NCBI GenBank assembly: GCA_963706395.1 | Contig: OY970158.1 | Coordinates: forward strand, 394,421 to 458,420 | Length of the DNA stretch: 64,000 nt | Source of the DNA: an uncultured Solirubrobacterales bacterium | Lineage (GTDB): Bacteria > Actinomycetota > Thermoleophilia > Solirubrobacterales > Solirubrobacteraceae | Reading direction: 5' to 3' | In this document: positions 9,835-28,921 of the stretch, one piece after another | How the letters are laid out: every line of letters begins with the position of its first letter | How positions within the stretch are numbered: the stretch's first letter is position 1 | Translations under genes and position numbers: made by a program | Notes under the pieces: generated by a model | Told to the model about the DNA's origin: nothing | The model's database searches: none | The model's input: the letters and a program-made list of their open reading frames with translations, nothing else

Positions 9835-11091
9835 GTGGCCATCGATCTCCAGCAAGTCTCATCCGTAGACGTCGAGCCGGGCGAGCTGCCCAAGACGATG
9901 GCCGCCTGGGTCATCCGCGAGGAGCGCTTCGGTGAACCCAAGGATGCCTTCCAGCTCGAGGAGATCGAGGTCCCAGAGCCCGGGGCGTTCGAGGTGATCG
10001 TGCGCGTGATGGCGGCGGGGGTGAACTACAACAACGTGTGGGCCGCGCTCGGCAAGCCGGTATCGGTGATGAAGTACGGCGACCACCCCGAGTTCGGCCA
10101 TCACATCGGCGGCTCTGACGCCTCCGGCGTCGTCTGGAAGGTCGGCGCGGGGGTGACGCGCTGGAAGCCCGGCGATGAGGTCGTCGTGCATTGCAACCAG
10201 GCCTCCTATGAGGACCCCGAGGTGCACGGCCTCGATCCGATGGCGGCGCCGTCGCAGAAGATCTGGGGCTACGAGACGACCTGGGGATCGTTTGCCCAGT
10301 TCACCAAGATTCAGGCCCAGCAGCTGCTTCCCAAGCCTCAGGCGCTGAGTTGGGAGGAGGCGGCCTCCTACGGCCTGGTGTACTTCACCGCCTACCGCAT
10401 GCTGATCACGCGCTGCAAGCTGCAACCCGGCGCGAACGTGCTGATCTGGGGTGCCGCGGGCGGCCTCGGTGTGTTCGCCACGCAGATCTGCGCCCTCGCC
10501 GGCGCGCACTGCGTCGGCGTCGTGTCCTCGGCCGAGAAGGGCGAGCTCGTCAAGCGCCTGGGCGCGGTCGACTACATCGACCGCGGCGAGTTCGCCGGGA
10601 TGATGCGCAAGGGCGGCGAGAGTCCCGAGGAGGAGAAGGCGCGCTTCAAGGTTTCGCTCGGCTTCGCCAAGAGGGTCAAGGAGATTCTCGGCGACGCGCC
10701 CGACATCGTCTTCGAGCACGTCGGCAAAGCCACGTTCCCGACCTCAGTGTTCACGGCCAAGACGTTCGGCAAAATCGTGATCTGCGCGGGCACGACGGGG
10801 ATCGACCTCGACTTCAACGTCGCCTACCTGTGGATGCGCCAGAAGGAGATCCTCGGCTCGCACTTCGCCAACGCGTATGAGTGCACGAAGGCCAATGAGC
10901 TGATCGAGTCCGGTCAGATCCGTCCCGTGCTGTGGCGCACGCTCGGCTTCGAGGGCGTCGCCGTTGCGCACCAGCTGATGCTCGAAAACAAGCACCTCGG
11001 CAAGATCTCGATCCTCGTCGGCGCCGAGAGCGAGGGCCAGGGCAAGACAGCCGAAGGCCCTGGCGCGATCCACGCAGAGGTCGGCGCGTAA
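9835..11091 (+). CDS. ccr: Crotonyl-CoA carboxylase/reductase
   Basis: MAAGVNYNNVW, GSDASG, HCNQ, WGYET and GSHFAN carry the CO2-binding Asn, aromatic, Glu and His positions. Confidence 0.93.
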   Translation: MAIDLQQVSSVDVEPGELPKTMAAWVIREERFGEPKDAFQLEEIEVPEPGAFEVIVRVMAAGVNYNNVWAALGKPVSVMKYGDHPEFGHHIGGSDASGVVWKVGAGVTRWKPGDEVVVHCNQASYEDPEVHGLDPMAAPSQKIWGYETTWGSFAQFTKIQAQQLLPKPQALSWEEAASYGLVYFTAYRMLITRCKLQPGANVLIWGAAGGLGVFATQICALAGAHCVGVVSSAEKGELVKRLGAVDYIDRGEFAGMMRKGGESPEEEKARFKVSLGFAKRVKEILGDAPDIVFEHVGKATFPTSVFTAKTFGKIVICAGTTGIDLDFNVAYLWMRQKEILGSHFANAYECTKANELIESGQIRPVLWRTLGFEGVAVAHQLMLENKHLGKISILVGAESEGQGKTAEGPGAIHAEVGA

Positions 11092-11489
11092 TGGGATCCC
11101 ACCCACCCGACCCCCATCCACCTGGCACGGTGATCGTCCCCTGGTACGCCACGGGCTTTCGCGCCGACGCATTCCAGCAGGACCTGGACGTTCTCGCCGC
11201 CACTGCCCTGCGCTACAACGCGAGCTCCTACGCGGTCTACCGCGCGCGCGATGACCGCTACAAGTTCCAGCAGCTCGCGAGCTTCGAGGAGAAACTCGAC
11301 TGGGAGCGCTACTGGGAGGGTCCTGAGATGACTGATTTCCGGGTGCTCCACTCCAGCTGGTACCAGGTCCCGGTGCTCTATGGCTGGTGGGAGCGCACCG
11401 CCGGTGGCGCCATCGCCCCCGAGCCAGAGCTCGCTGGCAACGGCCACGGCAACGGCGCTCCTCACCCAATCGAAGGCGAGAGCATCTAG
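11091..11489 (+). CDS. Hypothetical protein, possible ABM/ferredoxin-like fold, translationally coupled to ccr
   Basis: TAATG overlap with ccr; aromatic-rich 132-aa ORF. Confidence 0.65.
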   Translation: MGSHPPDPHPPGTVIVPWYATGFRADAFQQDLDVLAATALRYNASSYAVYRARDDRYKFQQLASFEEKLDWERYWEGPEMTDFRVLHSSWYQVPVLYGWWERTAGGAIAPEPELAGNGHGNGAPHPIEGESI

Positions 11490-11604
11490 CGCGAACGGCG
11501 CCCTGAGACGGCCGTGGACCAAGCGGCGCTAGGACGCAGTGAGCGAAGTGTGCTCTGCACATGAGCGATCGAGGACAACGCGACGCGCCGAGTCCACGGC
11601 CGTC

Positions 11605-11895
11605 TCATCCCTGCTCCAGGGGGGCCATTGTCAGACCGGCGCCCTTGAGCTGCTCCCAATAGTGCTCGGCCGTCTCCTGCTGGCCGCTGTACACGATCGC
11701 CTGGCCGGAGCTGTGGATCAGGTTGGCGAGCTCATGCCCACGCTCCAGCGTAGTCGCGGGGATATACCGCGCGAGCGTGCGGGCGACGTGGTCGAAGGTG
11801 TTGTGGTCGTCGTTGCGCACGATCACCCTCCACGAGTCGCCCAAGCCGCTGCCCGGCGATCCTATTCGTGGCAGCTCGGTCGTTTGGCCCGTCAT
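11605..11895 (-). CDS. clpS: ATP-dependent Clp protease adaptor ClpS
   Basis: WRVIVRNDDHNTFDHV...IHSSGQAIV...AEHY. Confidence 0.9.
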   Translation of the reverse strand: MTGQTTELPRIGSPGSGLGDSWRVIVRNDDHNTFDHVARTLARYIPATTLERGHELANLIHSSGQAIVYSGQQETAEHYWEQLKGAGLTMAPLEQG

Positions 11896-11933
11896 CCTGC
11901 GCCAGGATAATGCTCCGCCGTACAATTGTCAGT

Positions 11934-13973
11934 ATGAGCGGCGAACGAGCCCCACGGCTAGCGCAGCCTGACCGGCCCTGGATGATGCGCACATATGCCG
12001 GGCACTCGACGGCAAAGGCGTCCAACGAGCTATACCGGGGCAACCTCGCGAAGGGGCAGACGGGACTGTCGGTCGCTTTCGACCTACCGACCCAGACCGG
12101 ATATGACCCCGACGACGAGCTCTCTCGCGGAGAGGTGGGCAAGGTGGGGGTTCCGGTGGCCCACCGAGGCGACATGGCCACCCTGATGGACGGCATCCCG
12201 CTGTCGGAGATGAACACTTCGATGACGATCAACGCCACCGCCGCGTGGCTGCTGGCGCTGTACATCGTGGCCGCCGAAAACCAGGACCCGCCCACCGATC
12301 AATCACAGCTGCAGGGCACCACCCAGAACGACATCATCAAGGAGTTCTTGGCGCGGGGTACCTACGCCTTCCCGCCCGCGCCCTCGATGCGCCTGATCGC
12401 CGACATGATCGCCTACACGGTCGAGCACGTCCCCAAGTGGAACCCGATCAACATCTGCTCCTATCACCTGCAGGAGGCCGGAGCCACACCGGTGCAGGAG
12501 ATCGCCTACGCGATGAGCAACGCGATCGCCGTGCTCGACGCGGTACGCGAGCGCGTTCAGGCCGCCCACGCCGGCGACGAGACGGCCGCGCAGAAGCTGA
12601 TGGAACAGGTCTTCGGGCGTATCTCCTTCTTCGTAAACGCCGGCGTGCGCTTCGTCGAGGAGCACGCCAAGCTGCGCGCGATGGGCGTGCTGTGGGAGGA
12701 GCTTGGCCGCGAGCGCTACGGAGTGCAGAGCGAGCGCCACCTGCGCTTCCGCTACGGCGTGCAGGTCAACTCGCTGGGCCTCACCGAGGCCCAGCCGGAG
12801 AACAACGTCCAGCGGATCGTGCTCGAGACACTCGCCGTCACCCTGGGACGCGACGCGCGCGCACGGGCAATCCAGCTTCCGGCTTGGAACGAGGCACTGG
12901 GTCTGCCCCGCCCTTGGGACCAGCAGTGGTCGCTGCGCATCCAACAGGTGCTCGCCTATGAGACAGACATCCTGGAGTACCCCGACATTTTCGAGGGTTC
13001 CAAGGTCATGGATGGCCTGGTTTCCGAGCTGCTGGAAGGCGCACGCGCGGAGATGGCCGTGGTCGCCGAGCATGGCGGCGCGGTGCAGGCGGTCCCCTAC
13101 ATGAAGGGCGCGCTGGTGGACTCCCATCGCCAGCGCATCCACCGCATCGAGTCCGGGGAGCAGGTCGTGGTCGGCCAGAACCGCTTTGCCGAGACGGCTG
13201 TCTCGCCGCTGACAGCCGACGCCGAGGGCGGCATCCTCGTCGTCGATCCCGCAGTGGAGAGCGAACAGATCGACGCTGTGCGCCATTGGCGCGCCGAGCG
13301 CGACCAGGCGGCCGTCGACAGCGCCCTGTCAGAGCTCGCCAGGGTCGCCAGCGATGACAGCGGCCAAGGGAATCTGATGATCCCGACAATCGCCGCCGCC
13401 CGGGCAGGCGCCACGACGGGCGAGTGGGCCCACACTCTGCGCGAGGTGTTCGGCTCCTACCGTGCCCCCACGGGCGTGGGGGAGGCGATCGCGATCGGCG
13501 ACTCAACCCTCGACGAGTTGCGCGATGAGGTCGAACGCGTCTCGGCGACGCTCGGGCGCCGGCTGAAGATACTCGTCGGCAAGCCCGGCCTCGACGGCCA
13601 CTCCAACGGCGCCGAGCAGATCGCCGTCGCCGCGCGCGACGCGGGCATGGAGGTCGTATATGAGGGCATCCGCCTGACACCGTCGCAGATTGCCGCCTCA
13701 GCCCTGCAGGAGGGCGTACACGTGGTCGGCCTGTCGATCCTCTCTGGCTCACACCGTGAGCTGATCCCGTCGGTCCTCGCTGCGCTGCGGGAGGCCGGCA
13801 TCGGCGACGTGCCGGTGATCGTCGGCGGCATCATCCCGGCGGCCGACGTCGCGCCGCTGCGTGAGGCGGGCGTCGCCGCCGTGTACACGCCGAAGGACTT
13901 CGACATCACGCGCATCATGCGTGACATCGTCGCGCTCGTGGCCGAGCGCAGCGGAGTCGCGGCGTCCGCGTAG
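11934..13973 (+). CDS. ecm: Ethylmalonyl-CoA mutase (protein MeaA), B12-dependent
   Basis: PWMMRTYAGHS..ASNELYR.NLAKGQTGLSVAFDLPTQTGYD; B12-binding GLDGHSNG in the C-terminal domain; near ccr. Confidence 0.92.
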   Translation: MSGERAPRLAQPDRPWMMRTYAGHSTAKASNELYRGNLAKGQTGLSVAFDLPTQTGYDPDDELSRGEVGKVGVPVAHRGDMATLMDGIPLSEMNTSMTINATAAWLLALYIVAAENQDPPTDQSQLQGTTQNDIIKEFLARGTYAFPPAPSMRLIADMIAYTVEHVPKWNPINICSYHLQEAGATPVQEIAYAMSNAIAVLDAVRERVQAAHAGDETAAQKLMEQVFGRISFFVNAGVRFVEEHAKLRAMGVLWEELGRERYGVQSERHLRFRYGVQVNSLGLTEAQPENNVQRIVLETLAVTLGRDARARAIQLPAWNEALGLPRPWDQQWSLRIQQVLAYETDILEYPDIFEGSKVMDGLVSELLEGARAEMAVVAEHGGAVQAVPYMKGALVDSHRQRIHRIESGEQVVVGQNRFAETAVSPLTADAEGGILVVDPAVESEQIDAVRHWRAERDQAAVDSALSELARVASDDSGQGNLMIPTIAAARAGATTGEWAHTLREVFGSYRAPTGVGEAIAIGDSTLDELRDEVERVSATLGRRLKILVGKPGLDGHSNGAEQIAVAARDAGMEVVYEGIRLTPSQIAASALQEGVHVVGLSILSGSHRELIPSVLAALREAGIGDVPVIVGGIIPAADVAPLREAGVAAVYTPKDFDITRIMRDIVALVAERSGVAASA

Positions 13974-13976
13974 CTC

Positions 13977-14942
13977 GTGAACGAAGGCCTGGATCTCGGC
14001 CGGCGCCTGCGCGAACGTGACCTGAGCGCAGCGCCGGCCACGCTCAACCTGCTGGAGAGCACCACCCCCGGCAACCGCGAGCACGCGGCGGCACTGCTGG
14101 GCGAGCTCTCCCCCGTGGCGCTCGGCGGCGAGGCGCCCGGCCACGTAATCGGCGTCACCGGGCCGCCGGGAGCCGGGAAGTCGACGCTGCTCTCCGCGCT
14201 GCTTGGCGCATGGCGCGGGCAGGGCAAGACGGTGGCGGTTCTGGCGGTCGATCCCTCTTCGCGCCGCTCGGGCGGCTCGCTGCTCGGCGACCGCGCGCGC
14301 ATCGAGTTCGATCCGGCCGACCGCGCCGTCTTCATCCGCTCGACCGCCGCCGGCGAGCGGCTTGGTGGCCTGGCGTGGGGCACCCGCGCGGCGGCCCAGG
14401 CACTGGCCGCGGCGTTTGACATCGTGGTGATCGAGACCGTCGGAGTCGGCCAGGCTGAGACCGATATCGCGGACGTGGCAGACACCGTCGCCGTCGTCGT
14501 CCAGCCCGGCTCAGGCGACGTGTTGCAGTTCTTCAAGGCAGGGATCATGGAGATTCCCGACGTGCTCGTCGTCACCAAGGCCGACCTCGGCCTCCTCGCG
14601 GCGCGTACCATGGGCGAGGTGTCTGCGGCCCTGCGCTCGCTGGGCTCGGGTGCCACCAGCGTGGTGGCGGTGTCCTCGTTGCCTCCGGCGCAGGGAATCG
14701 AGGAGCTCCTCGCCGCGCTGGCTGAGCACCGCACCGGTCTCGAGCTCAAAGACAGGCGCCTGCGCGCGCGCCGGGCGAGCGCGCTGGCCGACTTCACCGC
14801 CGAGTACGGCGAGCGGGGACTGCGCGAGGTGGGAGGCCGCCGGGCGGCCGAGACCCTGCTGGCCGGGCAGGACCCCGGCCTGGACGTACCCACGCTCGTG
14901 GCGGCCCTGGAGCGAAGCATCGGAGCTGACGATGGCGCGTGA
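13977..14942 (+). CDS. meaB: Mutase-associated GTPase MeaB
   Basis: GVTGPPGAGKST, AVDPSS..SGGSLLGDR.R, IETVGVGQ, VTKAD. Confidence 0.92.
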   Translation: MNEGLDLGRRLRERDLSAAPATLNLLESTTPGNREHAAALLGELSPVALGGEAPGHVIGVTGPPGAGKSTLLSALLGAWRGQGKTVAVLAVDPSSRRSGGSLLGDRARIEFDPADRAVFIRSTAAGERLGGLAWGTRAAAQALAAAFDIVVIETVGVGQAETDIADVADTVAVVVQPGSGDVLQFFKAGIMEIPDVLVVTKADLGLLAARTMGEVSAALRSLGSGATSVVAVSSLPPAQGIEELLAALAEHRTGLELKDRRLRARRASALADFTAEYGERGLREVGGRRAAETLLAGQDPGLDVPTLVAALERSIGADDGA

Positions 14943-15153: not shown

Positions 15154-16947
15154 ATGCTGGTTCTGATCCTCTTTGCCATCCTCGCCGGAGCGGGGACCGC
15201 CCTGTCGCCGTGCGTTCTGCCGGTGCTGCCCGCGCTGCTGTCGGCAGGCGGCGTCGGAGGCCGGCGGCGTCCTCTCGGGGTGGTGCTCGGGCTGACGGTC
15301 ACCTTCACCGTCACGATCGTCGGGATCGCCAAGGTCGTGGGTGGCGTGGGCCTCGGCTCAGATCCGCTGCGCGACTTCGCGGTCGCGGTGCTGCTGGTTA
15401 TGGGACTGACGCTGATCGTGCCAGGTTTCGCGGATCGCTTGGAGGCGCGCCTCTCGCGCGTGGCCGCCGTCGGAGTGGGCGGGATGCGAATCAACACCGG
15501 CGACGGGTTCGCCTCCGGCCTCTTCGTGGGCGGTGCGCTCGGGTTCGTCTATACCCCATGCGCCTGCCCGATCCTTGCGGCCGTGATCTCGGTGAGCGCA
15601 GCCAGCGGGCGCACCGTGGCAGTGGCGATCGCCTACGCGCTAGGCTCCGCGGTCGTGCTGCTCGGGCTGACCCTCGGCGGCAGGGCACTGTTTGACCGCG
15701 TGCGCCAAGCCGGCCGTGGGCCGCTCCTGCAGCGCACGCTCGGCGCGATCATGCTGCTGACGGCGATCGCGATCATCTCAAGCCTCGACGTCAAGTTCGA
15801 CCAGCTGGTGGCGGAACGCATCCCCGACGTCAACCTCACCGCCAGCATCGAGAAATCCCACGCCGTGCAGAGTCGCCTGCCGGAGATCAGCGGGCATAGC
15901 GCCAAGTTCCAGCCGAGCACCGCGGCCCCCTCGGCGCCGCGCAGCGCCAGCCAAGCCAGCCTGCTCACGATCGCCCACGGGCTGCCCAACGTCGGCACGG
16001 CGCCGGACTTCACCGCCACCCAGGAGTGGTTCAACACGGGTGTGGGCGGGCATTCGCATCAGCCCCTCACGCTCGCCTCCTTGCGCGGGAGGGTCGTGCT
16101 CGTCGACTTCTGGACATACACCTGCATCAACTGCATCCGCACGCTTCCCTACCTGAAGGCGTGGGACGCGACCTACCGCGGCCAGGGCCTTGAGATCGTC
16201 GGCGTCGAGACACCGGAGTTCGCCTTCGAGCGCGACGCCTCCAACGTGGCCAGCGCGATCGGGCAGTTCGGGATCCGCTACCCGGTCGTCCAGGACAACG
16301 AAATGGGCACCTGGAACGCCTACGGCAACCAGTACTGGCCAGCGGACTATCTGATCGATGCGCGTGGTCAGGTCCGCTACGCAGCCTTCGGCGAGGGCGA
16401 CTACGCGAAGACCGAAACCGCGATCCGCGCGCTGCTAGCCGAAACCGGTCACAACGTCGCCGGCCACAGCCACCCGACCGATGTGATCGTGCCAAGTCAA
16501 GAAGCAACGCCGGAGACCTATCTGGGCACGGCCCGCGCGCAGGGCTGGGTCAATGGGCCGATCGCAGGGCGGCACGACTACGGTGCCGGCCAGGTGGGTG
16601 GACATCCAATCCCCCTCGCCATCAACAACTTCGCCTTCAGCGGCACCTGGAACACCGCCGCCCAGCCCGTCACCGCCGTCTCGGATGCGGGCATCGATGT
16701 GGAGTTCGAGGCCAAGAACGTGTACCTCGTGCTGAGCTCGGCCGGGGTACGCCCACGGCCCGTGCAGGTGCTGCTCGACGGCCGCCCCATCTCCGCGGCC
16801 AATGCTGGCGCCGATGTGCTGGGCGGCGTGGTCACCGTCAAGGACCAGCGCCTCTACACGCTCGTCTCCCTCCCACACGCTGAACGCCACCGTCTCACCC
16901 TGCGCTTTGCGCCCGGCGTCACGGGCTACGCATTCACGTTCGGGTAG
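15154..16947 (+). CDS. dipZ: DipZ-like protein (CcdA/DsbD membrane domain + thioredoxin + C-terminal domain)
   Basis: LSPCVLPVLP, YTPCACP, DFWTYTCINC, NQYWPA. Confidence 0.88.
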   Translation: MLVLILFAILAGAGTALSPCVLPVLPALLSAGGVGGRRRPLGVVLGLTVTFTVTIVGIAKVVGGVGLGSDPLRDFAVAVLLVMGLTLIVPGFADRLEARLSRVAAVGVGGMRINTGDGFASGLFVGGALGFVYTPCACPILAAVISVSAASGRTVAVAIAYALGSAVVLLGLTLGGRALFDRVRQAGRGPLLQRTLGAIMLLTAIAIISSLDVKFDQLVAERIPDVNLTASIEKSHAVQSRLPEISGHSAKFQPSTAAPSAPRSASQASLLTIAHGLPNVGTAPDFTATQEWFNTGVGGHSHQPLTLASLRGRVVLVDFWTYTCINCIRTLPYLKAWDATYRGQGLEIVGVETPEFAFERDASNVASAIGQFGIRYPVVQDNEMGTWNAYGNQYWPADYLIDARGQVRYAAFGEGDYAKTETAIRALLAETGHNVAGHSHPTDVIVPSQEATPETYLGTARAQGWVNGPIAGRHDYGAGQVGGHPIPLAINNFAFSGTWNTAAQPVTAVSDAGIDVEFEAKNVYLVLSSAGVRPRPVQVLLDGRPISAANAGADVLGGVVTVKDQRLYTLVSLPHAERHRLTLRFAPGVTGYAFTFG

Positions 16948-17021: not shown

Positions 17022-18734
17022 ATGCAAGCGCAGAGAATTGGGCTCAGTGCAAGCCTTCCACGGCGGTTCTACGCTCTGCTCGGAGCGATGGCGGCTCTCC
17101 TGGCGGTCAGCTTCGGGCCCACGGTGGCGCCAGCCGCCGCGGAAACTCCGGCGCATACCGATGTGATGCTGGTGTTCGACACCAGCGGATCGATGGAAGG
17201 CCAGCTGGAAGAAGCGAAGCAAGAAATCCAGGAAGTGATCGCGCACGTCAACGCAACGCTCCCTGACGTGGAGTACGGCGTCGCGGAGGTCAAAGACTTC
17301 GCGAACGCATATGGGAACGGACCGGAAGAAACCCCTTGGAAACTGGACCAGGCGCTTACCTCAAACGCCGCGGCTGTCTCCAGCGCGATTACCCCACTGA
17401 AAGCATCCGGAGGCGGTGATGCGCCAGAAGCCTACGGACGTGCGCTGTACGAGACCGACACCAACTCGGGCATCGGCTGGCGAGCCGGTGCCCGCCACAT
17501 CATCATCCTGGTCGCCGACAACGTACCCCACGACAACAACCTGAACGAAGGGATCCCGGAAAGCGAGTGGGCCAAGAACGAGGAAACCGGGATGATCGAA
17601 AACCCCTTCAACACCCACGAAGAACTTCCCGGAACCCAGAACATCCCGGGTAGCGTCTGGGGGCCGGGCGTGAGCACCGATTTCCAGACCACGCTGGCGG
17701 AGCTCAACAGTGACGGCAAGCCTCTGGGGATGGTCGACTTCAGAGGTGGGAAAGGGGAATCTGAATCCGGCTACCTGCCCTACTGGGAATACTGGGCCTG
17801 CCTCTCCGGCGGACAGGCTCTCGCCGGCGGGAGCAAAGAACTCGCAAGCAAGGTCACGACTCTGATCGAGACACGCGCGACCGCGGCTCTGCCACCATGT
17901 CCGGCCGGGCAGGTGCGCAACGCAAGCGGCGTGTGCGTCCCGCGACACCCCAGCGTCACCCAGGTGATCTGCAACCTAATCATCGCCACCGCATCGGACA
18001 CGTGTACGGCGACGATCGCCGACGGGGCGACGACGGAAGCGAGCAACCCAACCGGGACGGTCGCGTTCACGAGCGCAAGCGGCGGCGTCTTCAGCGCCGG
18101 TAACACGTGCGCGCTCGTGCCCACGCCGCTGTCGAGCAACGTGTCGAGCTGCTCGGTCCAGTTCCTGCCGCCGAGCGCTCCCAGCACGTTGCCGGCGATC
18201 ACCGCGGCATACTCTGGCGACAGCCTGCGCGCGCCCAGCAGCGGCCAGACCCATTACGGTGCAGCGGGCGAATTGATCAGCGATGTAACGCTATCCACGA
18301 CCGGCACTATCAATCCGGACGGAACGGTGACAGTGCCGGTCTCGTGCGGCTTCCCGTGCGAAGTCTCGGGCGGGCTCGACACCCTCCCGGGTCTGGCCTC
18401 GCTCGCATCGGTCTCGCCGTTCAGCATCCAACCGGCTGTGCTCACCGCGACTACGGCCAAGCACAGCAAGAAAAAGAAAAAGGCCAAAGCCGTTCAGCTC
18501 GGTACGGGCAAGCTCAAGCTGAGTACACCCGGCAAGGGCAAGCTGGTGATCAAGCTCTCATCCAAGGGCAAGCGCGCGCTGAGTCATGTCGGGAGCAAGG
18601 GCGTGCATCTGACCGTCAAGGTCACGATCAGCACGCTCAACGGCACGTTAGTCGCCGTCAAGTCGGGGCACGTCACGCTGCGGCCGAAGAAGAAGAGCAA
18701 GGCACACGCCAAAGGCAAGAAGCACAAGAAGTAA
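17022..18734 (+). CDS. Secreted VWA-domain protein with Ig-like region and Lys-rich C-terminal domain
   Basis: Signal peptide; MIDAS motif DVMLVFDTSGS; GGGDAPE; basic tail. Confidence 0.8.
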   Translation: MQAQRIGLSASLPRRFYALLGAMAALLAVSFGPTVAPAAAETPAHTDVMLVFDTSGSMEGQLEEAKQEIQEVIAHVNATLPDVEYGVAEVKDFANAYGNGPEETPWKLDQALTSNAAAVSSAITPLKASGGGDAPEAYGRALYETDTNSGIGWRAGARHIIILVADNVPHDNNLNEGIPESEWAKNEETGMIENPFNTHEELPGTQNIPGSVWGPGVSTDFQTTLAELNSDGKPLGMVDFRGGKGESESGYLPYWEYWACLSGGQALAGGSKELASKVTTLIETRATAALPPCPAGQVRNASGVCVPRHPSVTQVICNLIIATASDTCTATIADGATTEASNPTGTVAFTSASGGVFSAGNTCALVPTPLSSNVSSCSVQFLPPSAPSTLPAITAAYSGDSLRAPSSGQTHYGAAGELISDVTLSTTGTINPDGTVTVPVSCGFPCEVSGGLDTLPGLASLASVSPFSIQPAVLTATTAKHSKKKKKAKAVQLGTGKLKLSTPGKGKLVIKLSSKGKRALSHVGSKGVHLTVKVTISTLNGTLVAVKSGHVTLRPKKKSKAHAKGKKHKK

Positions 18735-18789: not shown

Positions 18790-18823
18790 CTCGTTCCATA
18801 CAATGGATCTCATGGAGGGTTCG

Positions 18824-19416: not shown

Positions 19417-21237
19417 TCAACCCAGGCGGGCTTCGAGCGCGTCGAGCTGCGCGCCCAGCTCGGGCGGCAGGCTGTCGAATTTCGCCAGGTGCTCGCGGAA
19501 CTGCGGCAGCTGCGCCTTCCACTCCGCGACATCGACTCGCAGCAGCTCGGCCATGTCCTCTTCGGAGACGTCGAGCCCGCGGGTGTCGATGCCCTCGGGG
19601 CCGACTGGAGGGATCAGTCCGATCGGGGTCTCGCGTCGCGGCGCCATGGCCGGCGCAGCGGGCGAACACCCACGAGAGCACGCGCGAGTTCTCGCCGTAG
19701 CCGGGCCACAGGAAGCGGCCCTCCGGGTCCTTGCGGAACCAGTTGACGTAGAAGATCTTCGGCAGGTTCGCGCCGGCCGTGCGACCGATCTGAAGCCAAT
19801 GGGCGAAGTAGTCGGCCATGTTGTAGCCGCAGAACGGCAGCATCGCGAACGGGTCGAAGCGCAGCTCACCGACAGTCCCGGCGGCCGCTGCTGTCTTCTC
19901 CGAGCTCATCACCGAGCCGAGGAAAACGCCGTGCTCCCAGTCGAGCGCCTCGGTCACCAGCGGCACGACGGTCGAGCGCCGCCCGCCGAACAGCATCGCG
20001 TCGATCGGCACGCCCGCGGGGTCCTCCCACTCGGGCGCGATCGCCGGGTCCTGCGCGGCCGGCGTCGTGAAGCGCGCGTTCGGGTGCGCCGCCGGCGGGG
20101 CGGGCGGATCCGTATCGGGCGTCCAGTCGTTGCCGTGCCAGTCGATCAGGTGCGCGGGCGTCTCCTTGGTCATGCCCTCCCACCAGACGTCGCCGTCGTC
20201 GGTCTTGGCGCAGTTGGTGAAGATCGAGTTGCGCTCGATCGTGCGGATCGCGTTCGGGTTGGTCTGCTCGCCGGTTCCCGGCGCGACGCCGAAGAAGCCG
20301 GACTCGGGATTGATCGCGTACAGCCGCCCGTCCTGCGCCGAACTTCATCCACGCGATGTCGTCGCCGATCGTCTCTACCGTCCAGCCCTCGAGCGTCGGG
20401 ATCAGCATCGCCAGGTTCGTCTTGCCGCAGGCGCTCGGGAATGCGCCGGTGATGTACTTGACCTCGCCCTCGGGCGAGGTCAGCTTGAGGATCAGCATGT
20501 GCTCGGCCATCCAGCCCTCGTCGCGCGCCATCACCGAGGCGATCCGCAGCGCGAAGCACTTCTTGCCGAGCAGCGCGTTGCCGCCGTAGCCGGAGCCGTA
20601 TGACCAGATCTCGCGCGTCTCGGGGAAGTGCACGATGTACTTGTTATCCGCGTTGCACGGCCACGGCACGTCCTCCGCGCCATCCTCGAGCGGCATCCCC
20701 ACGGAGTGCAGGCAGGGCACGAACTCGCCTTCGCTGCCGAGCGCGTCGAGCGCGCCCTGGCCCATGCGCGTCATGATCCGCATGCTCACCGCGACATAGG
20801 TCGAGTCGGTCAGCTGCACGCCGACGTGGCTCTTGTCCGAGCCGAGCGGCCCCATCGAGAACGGGCACCACGTACATCGTGCGGCCCGCGCATGCGAGCC
20901 CGCGAACAGCTCGCTGAGCGTCTCGCGCATCTCAGCCGGGATCGCGCCAGTTGTTCGTCGGTCCCGCTTCGGCCTCGGTGGCCGAGCAGATGAACGTGCG
21001 GTCCTCGACGCGCGCCACGTCGCCGGGGTCCGACAGCGCCAGGTAGGAGTTCGGCCGCTTGGCCTCGGAGAGCTTCTCGAAGGTCCCCGCCTCGACGAGC
21101 TCTGGCAGAGCCGGTCGTACTCCTCGGCGGAGCCGTCGCACCAGATGGACCTGCTCCGGTTCGGTGAGGGCCGCCACCTCCTCGACCCAGGCCAGCAGGC
21201 GCTCGTTCTTTGTGGGGGCGGGGACGGTGGTGTTCAT
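19417..21237 (-). CDS. pckG: GTP-dependent phosphoenolpyruvate carboxykinase, broken by several frameshifts (probably sequencing indels)
   Basis: [73 protein letters not shown] spread over several frames. Confidence 0.9.
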
Positions 21238-21358
21238 GAGATCCAAGCGGCTCCTCGGTATCGCGGTCGTGATCGGCGCGCCGTCGTCCTTGACGCGCTG
21301 CCGGGCCAAGATTGGCTCCGGGAACGGAAAAACGCCCTCTGCGGGCGGTCTGAGAAGC

Positions 21359-21944
21359 CTATCGCACCCCTGAATCGACGTTGCCTCTCGGCGCCGGGCA
21401 TGGCCGAGGCACTGGCGACGCGGCGAGCGGAACTCCTCGGGGTCCGCGGGGTACGAGCACGAGGCGCTTGAACTCGGCCACCAGCACGCCGTCCTGGTTC
21501 AGCACGCGCGTGTGCACCTTCACCGTGCCGCGGTCGGGCTTGGACTGGGACTCGTGCTTCTCCAGCACCTCGGACTCGCAGTAGAGCGTGTCGCCGTGGA
21601 ACACCGGTGCGGGGTGCTTGAGCTCTTCGGTCGCAAGGTTCGCGATCGCCTTGCCGCTGACGTCTGCTGACCGACATGCCGAGCGCGAGCGAGTAGACGA
21701 GCGGGCCGACGACGACGTTGCGCCCCTGCTGGGATTTGTGCGCGTACACGTCGTTCAGGTGCAGCGGGTGGTGGTTCATCGTGATCAGGCAGAAGAGGTG
21801 GTCGTCGGACTCGGTCACCGTCTTTGCGGGCCAGTGCTTGTACACGGCGCCGACCTCGAACTCCTCCAGGTAGCGGCCGTATGGATGGGCGCCGCTCGCC
21901 TCGCGTGCGGCCTGATCGGTCTCGACGGGGTGGGTCTCGCTCAT
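21359..21944 (-). CDS. MaoC-family dehydratase, likely actinobacterial mesaconyl-CoA hydratase; one frameshift near 21665
   Basis: YLEEFEVGAVYKHWP.KTVTE.DDHLFCLITMNHHPLH...DVSGKAIANL...FHGDT resembles the MaoC gene in the Streptomyces ccr/meaA cluster (recalled); pathway context. Confidence 0.8.
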
Positions 21945-22059
21945 GGGTCTCCTTCGGATGGTTGCACGCCGCAACTCTAGACTGTCCGAAGCGCCCAGAC
22001 GATACGGTTTGGAGTCAGACCCATCCCGAACGCCACCCAGGCCACCCAGGAGACCAGAC

Positions 22060-23133
22060 TTGCGCAACCCCCGCGACTTCTTCAAGCCCCTCGCGATCGA
22101 CGCGCCCGAGCCCGCGCGCGAGATCCCGTTCAAGCCGTCCCGGATGATCCACTTCATGGACTTCTCGAACGAGAAAATGGTCGCGAAGGCTCCCGACCTC
22201 GCGCCGCACGGTGGACATCCTGCTCGGCAACCTCGAGGACGCCGTGCCGCTTGAAAAGAAGGAGGCGGCACGAGCCGGTCTGATCAAGGTCGGCAGGGAG
22301 ATGGAGCTCGGCGACACGGCCCTGTGGACGCGCGTCAACGAGCTCGCCTCGCCCTACTTCCTCGACGACATCACCCAGCTCGTGGCCGAGATCGGGCACA
22401 AGCTCGAGGTGGTCATGATCCCGAAGGTCGAGGGTCCGTGGGACATCCACTACGTCGACCGTCTGCTGGCCCAGCTGGAGGCGAAGGCGGGCCTCGAGCG
22501 CCCGATCCTGATCCACTGCGTGCTCGAGACCGCCCAGGGCGTCGCCAACCTCGAGGAGATCGCCTGCGCCTCCCCGCGCATCCAGGGGATGAGCTTCGGC
22601 CCCGCCGACCTCGCCGCCTCGCGGCGCATGAAGACCACGCGCGTCGGCGGCGGGCACCCCGGCTACCGCACGATCGCCGACCCCGATCCGCGAGGACCCG
22701 GACGCGCCGCGGCCGAGCTACCAGCAGGACCCGTGGCACTACTCGATCGCGCGCATGGTCGACGCCTGCACGTCAGTCGGCGCGCTGCCGTTCTACGGCC
22801 CCTACGGCGACATCTCGCGACGCGGAGGGCTGCGAAACGCAGTTCCGGGCCTCGTTCCTGCTCGGCTGCGTCGGCGCCTGGTCGCTGCACCCGGGCCAGA
22901 TCGCGATCGCCAAGCGCGTCTACTCGCCCGACCCCGACGAGGTCGCGTTCGCGAAGAAGGTGATCGAGGCGATCCCCGACGGGCGCGGCGTGCACATGAT
23001 CGACGGCAAGATGCAGGACGACGCGACCTGGAAGCAGTGCAAGGTGATGGTCAACCTCGCGGAAATGCTCGCCAAGAAGGATCCTGAGCTGGCCGAGGCC
23101 TACGGGTTCGTGCCGCAGGCCGCCGCCGTATAG
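22060..23133 (+). CDS. mcl: Malyl-CoA/beta-methylmalyl-CoA/citramalyl-CoA lyase (Chloroflexus-type Mcl), frameshifted
   Basis: TTG 22060 with GGAG RBS; [72 protein letters not shown]. Confidence 0.85.
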
Positions 23134-23146: not shown

Positions 23147-24381
23147 ATGAGATTCTTCGAGTTCGAGGCGCGCGAGATCGTCAAGCGCGCCGGCATCCCC
23201 GTGACGGACTACGGCTTCACGACCGACCCGGCCGAGGCCAAGCAGATCGCCGAGCGGATCGGCGGCCCGACGGTTATCAAGTCCCAGGTGCTCTCCGGCG
23301 GGCGCATGAAGGCGGGCGGCGTCAAGTTCGCCGAGGCACCCGCCGAGGAGGCCGAGAGTCCTACGCTCGGGACATCCTGCAGCTGGAGATCGGCGGGCAC
23401 ATGCCGCGCGGGGTACTGGTTGACCCGAAGGCGGAGGTCGAGCAGGAGTACTACGCCGGCGTCGTCTGGGACGGCACCGCCAAGAAGCCGCTGATGCTCT
23501 TCAGCGACATGGGCGGCATCGACATCGAGCAGGTCGCCGAGGAGCACCCCGACCACGTCGGCCGCGGCCACTTCTCCACGCTCGAGCCCTTCTCCGACTT
23601 CCAGGCCAAGCAGGTCATCGCCGCCGCCGGCGTCACCGGCAAGGCGCTGCAGCGCGCCACCCCGGTGCTCGCTCGCCTGGCCCAGCTGTTCCTCGACAAC
23701 GACATGACGCTCGCCGAGATCAACCCGCTGGCGCAGCTGAAGGACGGCTCGTTCGTCGCGCTCGACGCGCACATGGAGATGGAGAACGAGGGCATGCCGC
23801 GTCAAAAGAGCCTGATCGAGGCACTGGGTATCGGCGCGGACGAGGGCACCCGCGAGGAGCTACACCCCGACTTCGTTCGAGGTCGCCGTCAAGGCGATCG
23901 ACGCCGCCGATCATCGTGGCGTCATCCAGGGCAAGGACACCGGCTTTCAACGGCAACATCGGCCTGGTGATCGGCGCGGGCGGCGGCTCGCTGACGCTCA
24001 CCGACGCCGTGCGCCAGCAGGGCGGTAAGCCCGCCAACTACTCCGAGATCGGCGGCAACCCGTCGGTCGCCAAGGCCTGCGGCCTGGCCAAGCAGGTTCT
24101 CCAGAAAGACGGCGTCGAGAAGATCGCGGTGATGATGTCGATCGTCTCCAACACGCGCGTGGACATCGTCGCGCGCGGCGTGATCAAGGCCTGCGTGGAG
24201 CTGGGCAAGGACCCCGGCGAGAACGATCGCGATCTTCCGCATCCCAGGCGCCTGGGAGGAGGAGGGCTTCAAGATCCTCGACAAATACGGGATCGAGTAC
24301 TGCGACCGGTCGGTGTCGTTGTGGGAGGCCGCGGGCCGGGCGGTCGCCAAGATTGAACCCCACCCACCCGAGGCGGCCTAG
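23147..24381 (+). CDS. Divergent SucC/MtkA-like ATP-grasp acyl-CoA ligase beta subunit, frameshifted
   Basis: FEFEAREI...[59 protein letters not shown]. Confidence 0.85.
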
Positions 24382-24383
24382 CG

Positions 24384-25312
24384 ATGTCGATCCTCATCGA
24401 CCAGGACACCACCTTCATCATCCAGGGCATCACCGGGCGCGAGGCCGTCAACCTCACGCGCGAGTGCCTGGACTACGGCTCGAAGATCGTCGGCGGCGTC
24501 ACCCCCGGCCGCAAGGGCCGTGAGGTCCACGGCGTGCCGGTGTTCGACACCGTCGAGCAGGCTCGTCGAGCACAACGGCGGCGTCGTGCCCGATGGCTCG
24601 GTCGTCACCGTCCCGCCCGCGGGCACGCGCGACGCCGTCTTCGAGGCGCTGCATGCCGGCATCAAGACGATCGTGATCGTCACCGAGCGTATCCCGCGCC
24701 GCGACGTCGCGATGATGGTCGAGCTGGCCGACGCCAAGGGCGCGCGAATCATCGGTCCCAACTGCCTCGGTGTGATCGTCCCCGGCGTCGCCAAGATGGG
24801 CGGCATCGGCGGCCCTGCGCGCAACGCCGCGGTCGCCTACCAGCCCGGCGCGGTCGGCGTGATGAGCCGCTCCGGCGGCATGACGACGGAGATCTCCTCC
24901 ACACTGACGGCAGCGGGACTCGGCGTCTCCACGGCGGTCTCGATCGGCGGCGACGCGATCATCGGCTCAACCTACGCCGAGCTGATGCCGTACTTCGAGG
25001 CCGACGAGCAGACCCAGGCGATCGTGATCTACACCGAGCCCGGCGGGCGCATGGAGGCCCAGCTGGCGCAGTGGGTCACCGAGCACAACTCGCGCCTGCC
25101 GATCATCGCCTTCATGGCCGGCAAGTTCATGGACGACGAGGAGATGCAGGGCATGTCCTTCGGGCACGCCGGCACGATCGTCGAGGGCAAGGAGGACAGC
25201 GCGACCGAGAAGATCGCCCGCCTCCAGGCGGCTGGCATCCCCGTCGTGCAGCGGATCGACGAGATCCCCGACCTGGTCAAGGCCAAGATCGCCGAGAGGA
25301 GCCCAAGCGTGA
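24384..25312 (+). CDS. SucD/MtkB-like acyl-CoA ligase alpha subunit, frameshift near 24560; 3' end uncertain
   Basis: [42 protein letters not shown], phospho-His motif FGHAG. Confidence 0.88.
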
Positions 25313-25572: not shown

Positions 25573-25613
25573 TTCCCTTTGACCGTGCGGTGGACTATCG
25601 TGTTAACGAGCCC

Positions 25614-25808: not shown

Positions 25809-26183
25809 TCAGTCGTGTTTGCGGGCGTGGCGCGTGTTCTCGCGTTCCTGTTGCTTCTCGACGACGCTCGAGATCAGCCGCAGGAACTGCTCGGGACCGG
25901 AGGCCTTGGCCTGGCCATAGGTGAACGCCTCGATCCAGTCGGGCACCTTGGCCTCATGGGCCATCACGTTGAAGAACTCGCGGCGCATTTCCACCCGCAC
26001 GCGGGCGTCGGTGGGAGGCGTCTTTACCACCTCGATGCCGGGCATCTCCAGGCGGAAGTGCTGCACGTCGCCGCGCCCGCGCAGCTCGACGGCGACCACG
26101 AGCTTCAACGGCTCGAGGGCCGGCACCTCCTCCAGGAACCTGCGCACGGCGAGTTCGATCAGGCTCTTTGCGTCCTCGGCCAT
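25809..26183 (-). CDS. Hypothetical protein, possible SCP2-like fold
   Basis: TGATG overlap with the ACAD; DARVRVEM...AFTYGQAKASG resembles the SCP2 pattern. Confidence 0.6.
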   Translation of the reverse strand: MAEDAKSLIELAVRRFLEEVPALEPLKLVVAVELRGRGDVQHFRLEMPGIEVVKTPPTDARVRVEMRREFFNVMAHEAKVPDWIEAFTYGQAKASGPEQFLRLISSVVEKQQERENTRHARKHD

Positions 26184-27397
26184 CAGATCTTGTGCCGCTC
26201 GAGAAGCTTGCGCCCGATCACCATGCGCTGGATCTCCGAGGTGCCCTCGCCGATCAGCAACAACGGAGCGTCGCGGTAGAGGCGCTCGATCTCATACTCC
26301 TTTGAGTATCCGTAACCGCCGTGGATCCGGAAGGACTCCTCGACGCAGAAGCGCCCGGCCTCGGAGGCGAACAGCTTGGCCATCCCGGCCTCGAGATCGG
26401 AGCGCACGCCGGCGTCCTTCATACGAGCCGCACGCAGCGTGAGCAGCCTGGCGGCATCGACCTGAGTGGCCATGTCGGCGAGCTTGAACTGGATCGCCTG
26501 GTGCTGGGCGATCGGCTTGCCGAAGGTCTTGCGCTCCTGGGAGTAGCGCAGCGCGAGCTCGAGCGCCCGTTGGGCGATCCCGACTCCGCGCGCCGCCACG
26601 TTCACGCGGCCGACCTCCAGGGCGTCCATCATCTGCGAGAAGCCCTTGTTCAGGCCGTCCTGCTCGCCGCCGAGTATGTTCTCCGCCGGGCAGTTGTAGC
26701 CGTCAAAAACGAGCTCGGTGGACTCCACACCCTTGTAGCCCATCTTTTTGATCTTCGGGGGCACGTTCAAGCCCGCGTACTCCCCCGTGTTCTCAGAGAC
26801 GCCCGCCTGCTTCTCGGCGATAAAGCAGGTCATACCGCGGTGGCGAGGATCGGCCTCGGGGTCTGTCTTGACCAGTACGAACACCAGCGTGGACATAAGC
26901 CCGTTGGTGACCCACATCTTCTGCCCGTTGATCTCATAGGCGCCGTCGCTCGTCTTCTTGGCGGAGGTCTTGATTGCCTGCACATCCGAGCCGAGCTCGG
27001 GCTCTGAAAGGGAGAACGCCGCCCTGATCTCACCGGTGGCCATGCGCGGCAGATACTTCTGCTTCTGCTCGTCGGTGCCGAACTTCATCAGCAGATAGGA
27101 GCCGATGAAGTGCGTGTTGATCACACCGGATATCGAGATCCAGCCGCGCGAGAGCTCCTCCACAATCATCGCGTAGGTCGTCAGGTCCAGGCCCATTCCC
27201 CCGTACTCCTCGGGGATGGTCACCCCGAACAGCCCGAGCTCCTTCATCTGCTCGACGATCGGCTCGGGGAAGGCGTCCTCGTGGTCGTAGTGCTCGGCGT
27301 TCGGCAGGATCTGCTCGTCGGCGAACTGGTGGACCATCTCGGTGATCGCTTTCTGCTCGTCGGAGAACTCGTGGGGGTTTTGGGTGGTCACGGCCAA
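26183..27397 (-). CDS. Acyl-CoA dehydrogenase, likely methylsuccinyl-CoA dehydrogenase (actinobacterial type)
   Basis: IPEEYGGMG, FSLSEPELGSD, NGQKMWVTNG, KMGYKG, RIHGGYGYSKEYEIERLYRDA; resembles the ACAD of the Streptomyces ccr cluster (recalled); context. Confidence 0.85.
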   Translation of the reverse strand: MAVTTQNPHEFSDEQKAITEMVHQFADEQILPNAEHYDHEDAFPEPIVEQMKELGLFGVTIPEEYGGMGLDLTTYAMIVEELSRGWISISGVINTHFIGSYLLMKFGTDEQKQKYLPRMATGEIRAAFSLSEPELGSDVQAIKTSAKKTSDGAYEINGQKMWVTNGLMSTLVFVLVKTDPEADPRHRGMTCFIAEKQAGVSENTGEYAGLNVPPKIKKMGYKGVESTELVFDGYNCPAENILGGEQDGLNKGFSQMMDALEVGRVNVAARGVGIAQRALELALRYSQERKTFGKPIAQHQAIQFKLADMATQVDAARLLTLRAARMKDAGVRSDLEAGMAKLFASEAGRFCVEESFRIHGGYGYSKEYEIERLYRDAPLLLIGEGTSEIQRMVIGRKLLERHKI

Positions 27398-27445
27398 GTC
27401 AGTAGCTCCAGTGTCGATTTCGGTCTGAGCAGAGAGAATACCGGC

Positions 27446-28921
27446 GTGAACTTCGCCAGGGACGTCCTCGACCAGCTGCCGCCTTCGGGCCTGGCGCTCG
27501 TAGAGCTGACGCGCGACGGCGCGCGCCGCGAGTGGACGTTCGCCGAGGTCAGCGAGCGCAGCGCGTGCCTGGCTGGCACTCTGCGGGCCCGCGGAATCGG
27601 GCGCGGCGACGTGGTGCTGACGCTGATCGGCAACCGGCCCGAGTGGGTGTTCACGATGCTGGCCTGCTTTCGGATCGGCGCGGTCGTGCTGCCGTGCACC
27701 GAGCAGTTGCGCGCGAAGGACCTGGCCTTGCGCATCGAGGCAGTGCGCCCATCGCTGATCCTCGCCGATGAGCGCAACCGGGCCGAGTTGGAGATAGCCC
27801 GGCCGGAATGCCCGGTGGCACTCCTGCCTGAGGAGACGCTGTTCGCGTCCGAGCCGGCGCCTGCCGCAGAGCTCGCGGCGGAGGAGCCCTGCCTGATCAC
27901 CTTCACCAGCGGCACGGCGGGCGAGCCGAAGGCGGTGGTGCATGGCCAGCGCTACCTCACCGGGCAGCGTTTGCAGGCCTCACACTGGCTCGACGCGCGT
28001 GCGGGTGAGCTCGTGTGGTGTACCGCCGCGAGCGGCTGGTCGAAGTCCGCCCGCAACATCTTCATCGCGCCGTGGCTGTCGGGCGCTGCCGCGCTGCTGC
28101 ACGATGCACGTTTTGACCCGGATGAGCGGCTGGAGCTGCTCGCGCGCGAGCGCGTGAACGTGCTGTGCATGGCCCCAACCGAGTACCGGGTGATCGCCAA
28201 GCGCTCGAACCTGCGAGCGCTTCCGGCACTGCGCACGATGGTGGCCGCGGGCGAGGCGCTCAATCCCGAGGTCCTGCGCGCTTGGCGTGCAGTCACCGGA
28301 CTGGAGATCCGCGACGGCTACGGCCAGACTGAGACAGGCCAGCTGACCGGCGCGCCGCCCGGCGCGCAGGCAAGGCCCGGCTCGATGGGACCCGCGCTGC
28401 CGGGCGTGGGCCTGCTGATCAAATACGGCGAGCTGACGGCGAACCCGGTGACCATTCCGACCTTCTTCCTCGGCTACCTAGGCGAGCACGTGCGCCGTGA
28501 CGAGGACGGCACATGGAGCGTGGAGGACCGCCGCGCCGGACCGCCGTGGCGCACCGGAGACCTGGTGGCGCAGGATGAGGACGGCTGGTATCACTTCGAG
28601 GGGCGTAACGACGATCTGATCATCTCCGCCGGCTACCGGATCGGGCCGTTCGAGGTCGAGTCCGCGCTCGTCGCTCACCCCGCGGTGGCCGAGGCCGCCG
28701 CCGTGGCGGCCCCGGATGAGGAGCGCGGCGAGGTCGTGCGCGCGGTGGTCGTGCTGCGCGACGGCCACGCCCCTTCCACGGCGCTGGCCAAGGAGCTGCA
28801 GGAGCACGTCAAGCTTCAGACCGCGCCCTACAAGTACCCGCGCATCATCGACTTCGCCTCCGAGCTCCCGAAGACCGCAAGCGGGAAGATCAGACGAGCT
28901 GCTCTGCGGTCTGAGCGCTAA
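27446..28921 (+). CDS. AMP-forming acyl-CoA synthetase (short/medium chain)
   Basis: FTSGTAGEPK, DGYGQTET, RTGD, GRNDDLI.SAGYRIGPFEVE, YKYPR, PKTASGKI. Confidence 0.9.
   Translation: MNFARDVLDQLPPSGLALVELTRDGARREWTFAEVSERSACLAGTLRARGIGRGDVVLTLIGNRPEWVFTMLACFRIGAVVLPCTEQLRAKDLALRIEAVRPSLILADERNRAELEIARPECPVALLPEETLFASEPAPAAELAAEEPCLITFTSGTAGEPKAVVHGQRYLTGQRLQASHWLDARAGELVWCTAASGWSKSARNIFIAPWLSGAAALLHDARFDPDERLELLARERVNVLCMAPTEYRVIAKRSNLRALPALRTMVAAGEALNPEVLRAWRAVTGLEIRDGYGQTETGQLTGAPPGAQARPGSMGPALPGVGLLIKYGELTANPVTIPTFFLGYLGEHVRRDEDGTWSVEDRRAGPPWRTGDLVAQDEDGWYHFEGRNDDLIISAGYRIGPFEVESALVAHPAVAEAAAVAAPDEERGEVVRAVVVLRDGHAPSTALAKELQEHVKLQTAPYKYPRIIDFASELPKTASGKIRRAALRSER

Follow-up and report, generated by a model that had tools for sequence, protein, structure and literature searches.

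A probable ethylmalonyl-CoA pathway neighborhood typical of Solirubrobacterales, with a divergent CoA ligase and likely consensus frameshifts

The DNA considered here, called the window throughout, is a stretch of 64,000 nucleotides (positions 394,421-458,420 of contig OY970158.1) from the single-contig, 2.63-Mb genome of an uncultured Solirubrobacterales bacterium (67% G+C, 93% complete). Between 9.8 and 28.9 kb, it carries genes for a crotonyl-CoA carboxylase/reductase (Ccr), a B12-dependent acyl-CoA mutase (Ecm) and its chaperone MeaB, a MaoC hydratase (Mch), a CoA lyase (Mcl), an acyl-CoA dehydrogenase (ACAD; Mcd), an acyl-CoA synthetase (Acs), phosphoenolpyruvate carboxykinase (PEPCK), and a two-subunit SucCD-like CoA ligase (SucC'D'). 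The initial annotation had listed these gene types and read them as a mosaic supercluster for the ethylmalonyl-CoA (EMC) pathway; all of them were found, and what it had left unmentioned are frameshifts in PEPCK, the hydratase, the lyase, and both ligase subunits. The EMC locus is here genuine and conserved in a variant form that includes one uncharacterized enzyme, and "mosaic supercluster" is an overstatement for it. It probably represents the lineage-typical EMC neighborhood of Solirubrobacterales, inherited vertically within the order, with frameshifts that are errors of the assembly consensus.

Gene content and conservation of the locus

The gene map (Table 1) is based on Pfam and NCBIfam scans and on tblastn searches with intact orthologs from a genome of the same genus (G003). 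The order is ccr, a small open reading frame (ORF), ecm, meaB, a dsbD-like gene, a VWA gene that is not always present, a conserved 197-aa ORF, PEPCK, mch, mcl, sucC', sucD', a ferredoxin-like ORF (fdx-like), p127, mcd, and acs. Unrelated genes interrupt the pathway set, namely, those for the DsbD/thioredoxin protein, the VWA protein, and three conserved ORFs without a family match.

Synteny was compared across 59 genome loci, 20 long metagenome loci, and 80 ccr-anchored related loci; among public genomes, the 80 nearest ccr loci all belong to metagenome-assembled genomes with Solirubrobacterales or Solirubrobacteraceae in their titles. Of the 59 genome loci, 57 retain the succession ccr-small ORF-ecm, 55 have meaB, 48 have dsbD, and 44 have the 197-aa ORF. 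The other half of the cluster (acs-mcd-p127-sucD'-sucC'-mcl-mch-PEPCK) is present in each of the 20 long metagenome loci up to the point where the locus ends, acs itself in 19 of them, and the same gene order occurs in other families of Solirubrobacterales. Ccr proteins share 88-94% identity among members of the genus and 73-85% across the order, and G+C content is even across the region. Because the whole order shares the arrangement and its Ccr proteins are 73-94% identical, nothing about the locus is recent. At least six other actinobacterial families also combine Ccr with a Chloroflexus-type Mcl and a small Mch. The suggestion that this is a special or recent mosaic is thus not borne out, and its mosaic appearance is mostly due to the small number of characterized model organisms. 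Ancient gene exchange may nonetheless have replaced Ccr or the lyase.

The three ORFs without a Pfam match always accompany the cluster, in the gap between ccr and ecm, beside PEPCK, and downstream of mcd. The last of these, p127, has 325 relatives in metagenomes and, in the long metagenome loci, is always positioned between mcd and sucD'; an exact-protein look-up of the 197-aa ORF returned no match. The DsbD-like gene is a conserved passenger whose role in the pathway is not evident. The VWA gene is a variable insertion: it lies between dsbD and the 197-aa ORF in 9 of the 80 related loci and is absent from that position in G003. Its G+C content at third codon positions (GC3) is lower than that of its neighbors. 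At the borders of the block, MFS and MarR genes mark the end in 15 of 20 long metagenome loci, and a gene for a GCV_T-like protein stands upstream of ccr. Because the latter overlaps ccr and a homolog is kept upstream in 72 of 80 ccr-anchored loci, it is possibly cotranscribed with ccr.

Table 1. Features of the locus and its borders (window positions)
Feature	Position	Strand	Basis
GCV_T-like folate-binding protein	8763-9776	+	Pfam GCV_T, GCV_T_C; overlaps ccr start by 26 nt
ccr, crotonyl-CoA carboxylase/reductase, intact	9751-11091	+	TIGR01751
Small conserved ORF between ccr and ecm	11121-11489	+	66% identical to G003 copy
ecm, fused B12-dependent acyl-CoA mutase, intact	11868-13973	+	Pfam MM_CoA_mutase and B12-binding
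meaB, G-protein chaperone of mutase	13977-14942	+	Pfam MeaB, 211 bits
DsbD-TM/thioredoxin-like membrane protein	15154-16947	+	Pfam Thioredoxin_10, AhpC-TSA, DsbD_TM
VWA-domain (VWA/Ig-like) protein	17022-18734	+	Pfam VWA
Conserved 197-aa ORF beside PEPCK	18803-19396	+	90% identical to G003 copy
GTP-dependent PEPCK, four frame segments	19423-21366	-	PF00821, PF17297 in three frames
mch, small single-domain MaoC hydratase	21446-21968	-	Orthology to emc-operon mch
mcl, MCL_C-type HpcH/CitE lyase	22075-23130	+	G003 ortholog compared with PDB 4L7Z/4L80
sucC', ATP-grasp beta subunit of divergent SucCD-like CoA ligase	23153-24357	+	
sucD', alpha subunit of SucCD-like ligase	24375-25302	+	97-98% identical to G003 copy
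Small Cys-rich ferredoxin-like ORF, ~82 aa	25306-25572	+	Weak Fer4 matches, E 0.0015-0.03
p127, conserved 124-aa ORF downstream of mcd	25809-26183	-	
mcd, ACAD, ~404 aa, intact	26186-27397	-	Orthology to emc-operon mcd
acs, short-chain acyl-CoA synthetase (AMP-forming), divergent from mcd, intact	27380-28921	+	Pfam AMP-binding
MFS transporter	28890-30584	-	Pfam MFS_1
MarR regulator	30539-31039	+	Pfam MarR

Predicted enzymes and the flow of carbon

Ccr scores 486.1 bits on TIGR01751, above the equivalog cut-off of 378.55, as do Ccr proteins in 88 of 251 sampled Actinomycetota genomes searched with the family model. The CO2 pocket of the Kitasatospora setae enzyme is formed by Asn81, Phe170, Glu171, and His365, and Tyr in place of Phe170 is reported to work (PMC6628652). 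Alignment with solved Ccrs places Asn, Tyr (for Phe170), Glu, and His at these positions in the window protein (motifs VNYNNVW, WGYET, and GSHFAN), in agreement with the carboxylase residues recognized earlier; M. extorquens Ccr also has Tyr at the Phe170 position. A tree of 39 sequences, midpoint rooted and with a single alphaproteobacterial reference, divides into two deep clades. One unites the Solirubrobacterales proteins with M. extorquens Ccr (4GI2, 47.6% identical to the window Ccr), AntE, and proteins of three actinobacterial families (f18, f20, and f39); the other contains the Streptomyces-type Ccr, 38-45% identical to that of the window, and the Ccr of most other Actinomycetota. The description of this Ccr as alphaproteobacterial in type agrees with that grouping.

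The next three enzymes have their counterparts in the Streptomyces-type emc operon. We used as comparison the operon of a 9.2-Mb Streptomyces-like genome whose Ccr groups with that of S. collinus and in which genes for Ccr, Ecm, a lyase, a MaoC protein, and an ACAD follow one another in a row; the corresponding ccr-ecm-mml-mch-mcd operon type in Streptomyces supports growth on acetate (PMC4606968). Ecm is the reciprocal best match of the emc-operon mutase (64% identity, 803 bits versus 351 for the next paralog), is 38% identical to the two other mutases of its own genome, scores 530 bits on the Mcm equivalog, below the cut-off of 876, and has meaB adjoining its gene. Mch is the reciprocal best match of the operon's MaoC protein at 60-68% identity and the only MaoC match of that query in the genome, and among PDB structures it matches Chloroflexus Mch best, over the N-terminal half of that enzyme (4E3E, residues 8-155). 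Mcd is the reciprocal best match of the operon's ACAD (59% identity, 476 bits versus 246 for the next paralog); against the structure of a characterized Mcd, it aligns to residues 170-551 of 6ES9 only, at 297 bits, barely above generic ACADs (294). The resemblance of hydratase and ACAD to Streptomyces ccr-cluster genes, which had been noted in the initial annotation, is therefore one of orthology, and because the two proteins group with actinobacterial Mch and Mcd, respectively, the prospect it had raised of their lying outside these clades can be set aside. Two longer gene models were discarded: a 586-aa ORF for the ACAD is overextended, the protein being ~404 aa, and a 350-aa double hot-dog hydratase was ruled out in favor of a small single-MaoC protein of ~175 aa encoded on the minus strand. 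The other two enzymes of the operon are more distant, its Ccr being only 42% identical to the window Ccr and its lyase 27-39% identical to the window lyase.

The lyase reads more clearly through its ortholog in G003. In line with the initial annotation's comparison with the Chloroflexus enzyme, this ortholog shares 63% identity with Chloroflexus aurantiacus Mcl (497 bits on PDB 4L7Z/4L80) and keeps the catalytic residues Arg92 and Asp318; the frame pieces of the window gene are 85-86% identical to this ortholog. Scores on proteobacterial enzymes are 183-197 bits. Members of the MCL_C cluster of lyases share at least 57% identity (PMC3832036), and by this measure, the window protein is assigned to that tight group of malyl-CoA/beta-methylmalyl-CoA/citramalyl-CoA lyases. 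Beyond the order, MCL_C-type lyases (62-69% identical) occur in ~20 genomes of six actinobacterial families, all of which also encode Ccr and many of which have a small Mch gene divergently beside the lyase. A search for a malyl-CoA thioesterase, proposed in the initial annotation, came back empty: tblastn found no second CitE-like gene (Mcl2) in the genome, leaving mcl as the only one.

Other Actinomycetota have a second CitE-like paralog after the MCL_C lyase; in Solirubrobacterales, sucC'D' occupies that neighborhood, directly after mcl in the genus and 0.8-5.6 kb away in the order's other families. The ligase is divergent. SucC' scores 234 bits against a SucC cut-off of 370 and 175 bits against a cut-off of 604 for the malate-CoA ligase beta subunit, and SucD' scores 273 bits against a SucD cut-off of 336. 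The pair is 32-39% identical to the genome's housekeeping SucCD (32% for SucC' and the sucC product at 1.42 Mb), its close homologs are confined to Solirubrobacterales, and a homolog search with SucC' returned solely Thermoleophilia proteins, unnamed or generically named. In relatives, the fdx-like ORF is coupled to the sucD' stop codon through an ATGA or GTGA overlap; an apparent SucD-ferredoxin fusion in the window was rejected as the product of a private insertion near 25305 that removes the sucD' stop. We tentatively propose that SucC'D' handles malyl-CoA and malate, and we speculate that, with its small Fe-S-like partner, it might be a malyl-CoA-specific, nucleotide-forming ligase that replaces the Mcl2 thioesterase in Solirubrobacterales. 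If so, the EMC route would end in substrate-level phosphorylation and the thioester would not be wasted. The main alternative role for this ligase is the activation of C5 dicarboxylates. Elsewhere, in two loci of family f24 (L210 and L211, genomes G171 and G196), the gene directly upstream of a sucCD pair encodes a lyase with 34-37% identity to G003 Mcl, and the beta subunit of that pair scores 563.7 bits on malate-CoA ligase (cut-off 604) and 552.5 on SucC (cut-off 370). We dropped this pairing as support for a malate-CoA ligase, as the f24 enzyme passes the ordinary SucC cut-off.

The remaining steps were sought in the whole genome, with an inventory covering the epimerase, carboxyltransferases, mutases, and glyoxylate shunt. 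The initial annotation had placed epi, pcc, and mcm outside the window, and candidates for all three are indeed encoded elsewhere: a methylmalonyl-CoA epimerase (145.5 bits, cut-off 114.95), four strong carboxyltransferase matches (candidate pcc), one adjoining a mutase and one 3.7 kb upstream of the window, and two further mutases scoring 700-738 bits on PF01642 (candidate mcm). It had also pointed to aceA as a gene to look for; neither isocitrate lyase (PF00463) nor malate synthase (PF01274) has a match in the 93% complete genome, in which PEPCK, lyase, and hydratase are single-copy. These results fit an EMC route that provides the sole means of anaplerosis from acetyl-CoA, and a PEPCK gene colocated with it for gluconeogenesis.

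In the scheme we propose, the acyl-CoA synthetase, for which the best NCBIfam match is MbcS (388 bits, below the cut-off of 850), would bring short acids into the CoA pool, and Ccr would reductively carboxylate crotonyl-CoA to ethylmalonyl-CoA. The epimerase encoded elsewhere, together with Ecm and MeaB, would yield methylsuccinyl-CoA, which the 404-aa Mcd would oxidize to mesaconyl-CoA and the small Mch would hydrate to beta-methylmalyl-CoA. Mcl would cleave the latter to glyoxylate and propionyl-CoA and condense glyoxylate with acetyl-CoA to malyl-CoA. Propionyl-CoA would pass to the candidate carboxylase and mutase encoded elsewhere, and PEPCK would convert C4 acids to PEP. The weakest step is the interconversion of malyl-CoA and malate, which the SucCD-like ligase and its small Fe-S-like partner would perform in place of the Mcl2 thioesterase. 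The scheme combines established family membership, orthology, synteny, and lack of a glyoxylate shunt with predicted enzyme activities. Solirubrobacterales are abundant in soil and rarely cultured, and the locus points to CO2-fixing assimilation of acetyl-CoA through the EMC pathway without a glyoxylate shunt. The enzyme set departs from both textbook versions of that pathway, and a ligase at the place of a thioesterase-like gene makes an attractive target for biochemistry.

The frameshift patch and rival readings of the locus

The frameshifts are concentrated in one part of the cluster. Insertions and deletions (indels) were called from alignments with six relatives and are termed private when found in the window only. 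Within 19.4-24.6 kb, the window has 18 private frameshifting indels and the relatives have 0-2; a 19th, at ~25,305, abolishes the sucD' stop and produces the run-on into the Cys-rich ORF. Nine fall in PEPCK, one in mch (an insertion at 21665), three in mcl (insertions at 22207, 22690, and 22817), four in sucC', and two in sucD' (insertions at 24562 and ~25305). Nearly all are single-base insertions, most of them outside homopolymers, and the same alignments contain none in ccr, ecm, dsbD, or the ACAD gene. Six genes are broken or misjoined as a result (PEPCK, mch, mcl, sucC', sucD', and the fdx-like ORF), with tblastn recovering PEPCK in four frame segments (-2/-1/-3/-2), the lyase in four, the hydratase in two, sucC' in five, and sucD' in two. 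Inside this error-rich patch, PEPCK also has a private in-frame 9-nt insertion, GCGGGCGGA, at 20100-20108, absent from 15 of 15 aligned relatives. A codon-phase scan marks the patch as the densest in the genome, with 15 phase changes per 5 kb where the median is 5 and the 99th percentile 9.8. Low coverage by long ORFs had hinted at error throughout the genome, an explanation we rejected: the stretches concerned are lower in G+C, the GC3 filter fails there, and the codon-phase patch is unique. Three stretches of the contig, at 54-80, 356-386, and 744-758 kb, have 58-63% G+C compared with 67% for the genome and little codon-phase signal, and they may be islands or mobile DNA.

Could the frameshifts be real? 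Recent loss of PEPCK, Mch, Mcl, and the ligase would mean that the EMC route is decaying, which would fit a small genome of 2.6 Mb. The concentration of 19 private frameshifting indels in six adjacent single-copy genes speaks for such decay, as do the size of the genome, the smallest in its genus sample, and the uniqueness of the patch (413-422 kb of the contig). The pattern of substitution says otherwise. With the insertions removed, codons invariant in 11-14 relatives have private nonsynonymous changes in 0 of 381 cases in PEPCK, 0 of 137 in mch, 0 of 266 in mcl, 2 of 256 in sucC', and 0 of 192 in sucD' (2 of 1232 in total); private synonymous changes number 11, 2, 2, 4, and 6, respectively. 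Because nonsynonymous changes are near zero while synonymous ones persist, purifying selection has not been relaxed. Gene decay in bacteria is biased toward deletions, and the events here are nearly all +1 insertions. Moreover, 14 of the 16 bases added by single-base insertions equal an alternative allele of the relatives at the adjacent polymorphic column (null rate 0.28, P = 1.4e-6), and because inserted bases match neighboring alternative alleles, a mixed-strain consensus is favored over mutation. Two related strains were probably collapsed in assembly, with both alleles of a single-nucleotide polymorphism (SNP) written in series to give the +1 insertions. We thus regard the frameshifts as very likely assembly consensus errors and real decay as highly improbable. 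Automatic annotation of such a 6-kb patch of SNP-derived insertions would call a key pathway lost.

A broader challenge to a vertically inherited neighborhood is that its genes were gathered into a new supercluster by horizontal transfer from alphaproteobacterial, Streptomyces-like, and Chloroflexus-like donors. Ccr does fall in the clade of M. extorquens, while other Actinomycetota that combine an MCL_C lyase with a small Mch carry Ccr of the other clade at 38-45% identity; likewise, the lyase is as close to Chloroflexus Mcl as to the lyases of other actinobacterial families and far from that of the Streptomyces operon. The order-wide arrangement with its closely related Ccr proteins and the even G+C content argue against this view, as do the at least six other actinobacterial families that have the lyase, small Mch, and Ccr together. 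Ccr of the same clade in the actinobacterial families f18, f20, and f39 also speaks against it, as does a Ccr tree that is midpoint rooted and has one alphaproteobacterial reference. Assembly by transfer is quite unlikely on this evidence. A different possibility concerns function: the right half of the cluster (mch, mcl, sucC'D', mcd, acs, and the MFS and MarR genes) might serve mainly the catabolism of C5 dicarboxylates such as itaconate, mesaconate, methylsuccinate, or citramalate, with the ligase activating the free acid and the lyase yielding either pyruvate and acetyl-CoA or glyoxylate and propionyl-CoA. The SucCD-like ligase, the transporter, and the MarR regulator would equip such a module for uptake and activation, Chloroflexus-type Mcl also cleaves citramalyl-CoA (PMC3832036), and in NCBIfam the hydratase and lyase are best named RipB/Ich and RipC/Ccl, after enzymes of itaconate degradation. 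These Rip scores are far below their cut-offs, however (137.8 versus 340 bits for the hydratase and 108.8 versus 375 bits for the lyase). In addition, mch and mcd are orthologous to emc-operon genes, all long loci examined join the module to ccr-ecm-meaB, and no alternative path from acetyl-CoA to C4 acids is encoded in the genome. We consider C5 catabolism unlikely to be the main function, and the two roles are not mutually exclusive.

Besides the Rip names, several points count against the lineage-typical EMC neighborhood with consensus errors that we favor. Enzyme activities are predicted throughout, here as in other Thermoleophilia, and crotonyl-CoA would come from presumed thiolase, reductase, and crotonase steps. 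Two of the proteins differ in architecture from characterized enzymes, Mch being a single hot-dog protein of ~175 aa where those are fused doubles (~350 aa) and Mcd having no counterpart of the N-terminal extension (residues 1-169) of the proteobacterial Mcd 6ES9. The assignment of SucC'D' to malyl-CoA draws only on gene position and complementary distribution. As for the frameshifts, simple low sequence quality would not obviously predict a patch that is unique in the genome, and a p127-anchored scan of metagenomes found contigs up to 96% identical, none covering the broken patch. Nor does any same-species contig span it, and the case for consensus errors is indirect.

Genomic surroundings and closest known systems

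At 1,920,061-1,926,614 of the contig, a second meaB paralog (43% identical) is grouped with an ACAD gene (44% identical to mcd) and a separate B12-binding domain, and the three may constitute a second acyl-CoA mutase system. Near the start of the window (1559-2752 and 3261-6572), a gene for a type III polyketide synthase stands beside F420 biosynthesis genes, which encode a member of the F420-0:gamma-glutamyl ligase family and a radical-SAM protein whose C-terminal domain is CofH, and an aquaporin gene follows.

Among known systems, the Streptomyces emc operon (PMC4606968) is of the same phylum and pathway, with orthologous Ecm, Mch, and Mcd (59-68% identity) and the same small sizes of Mch and Mcd. 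It differs in that the window Ccr comes from the other deep clade (42%) and the window lyase is of MCL_C type rather than Mml (27-39%), and the window genes spread over 19 kb and both strands, with meaB, PEPCK, the SucCD-like ligase, the acyl-CoA synthetase, and several ORFs in addition. The alphaproteobacterial EMC pathway of Rhodobacter sphaeroides and Methylorubrum extorquens has the same reaction sequence and a Ccr of the same major clade (4GI2, 47.6%). Its lyase is of the Mcl1 type, in contrast to the MCL_C lyase of the window (497 versus 197 bits), and relative to it, the window Mcd is shorter by an N-terminal extension of ~170 aa, Mch is half-size, and no Mcl2 thioesterase was found in the genome. 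Mcl and Mch of Chloroflexus aurantiacus, which act in the 3-hydroxypropionate bi-cycle (4L7Z/4L80 and 4E3E), provide a close comparison for the lyase (63%, with Arg92 and Asp318) and the best solved relative of the hydratase, although the latter matches one half of a fused enzyme and the context in the window is ccr and ecm. Finally, mtkAB adjoins mcl in serine-cycle methylotrophs, and the window pair lies beside a malyl-CoA lyase gene in the same manner as mtkAB-mcl; like MtkAB and SucCD, it would form a two-subunit ligase with ATP-grasp and CoA-binding parts. Unlike either, it falls below both equivalog cut-offs, is only 32-39% identical to SucCD of its own genome, is restricted to Solirubrobacterales, and is followed by a small Cys-rich ORF.

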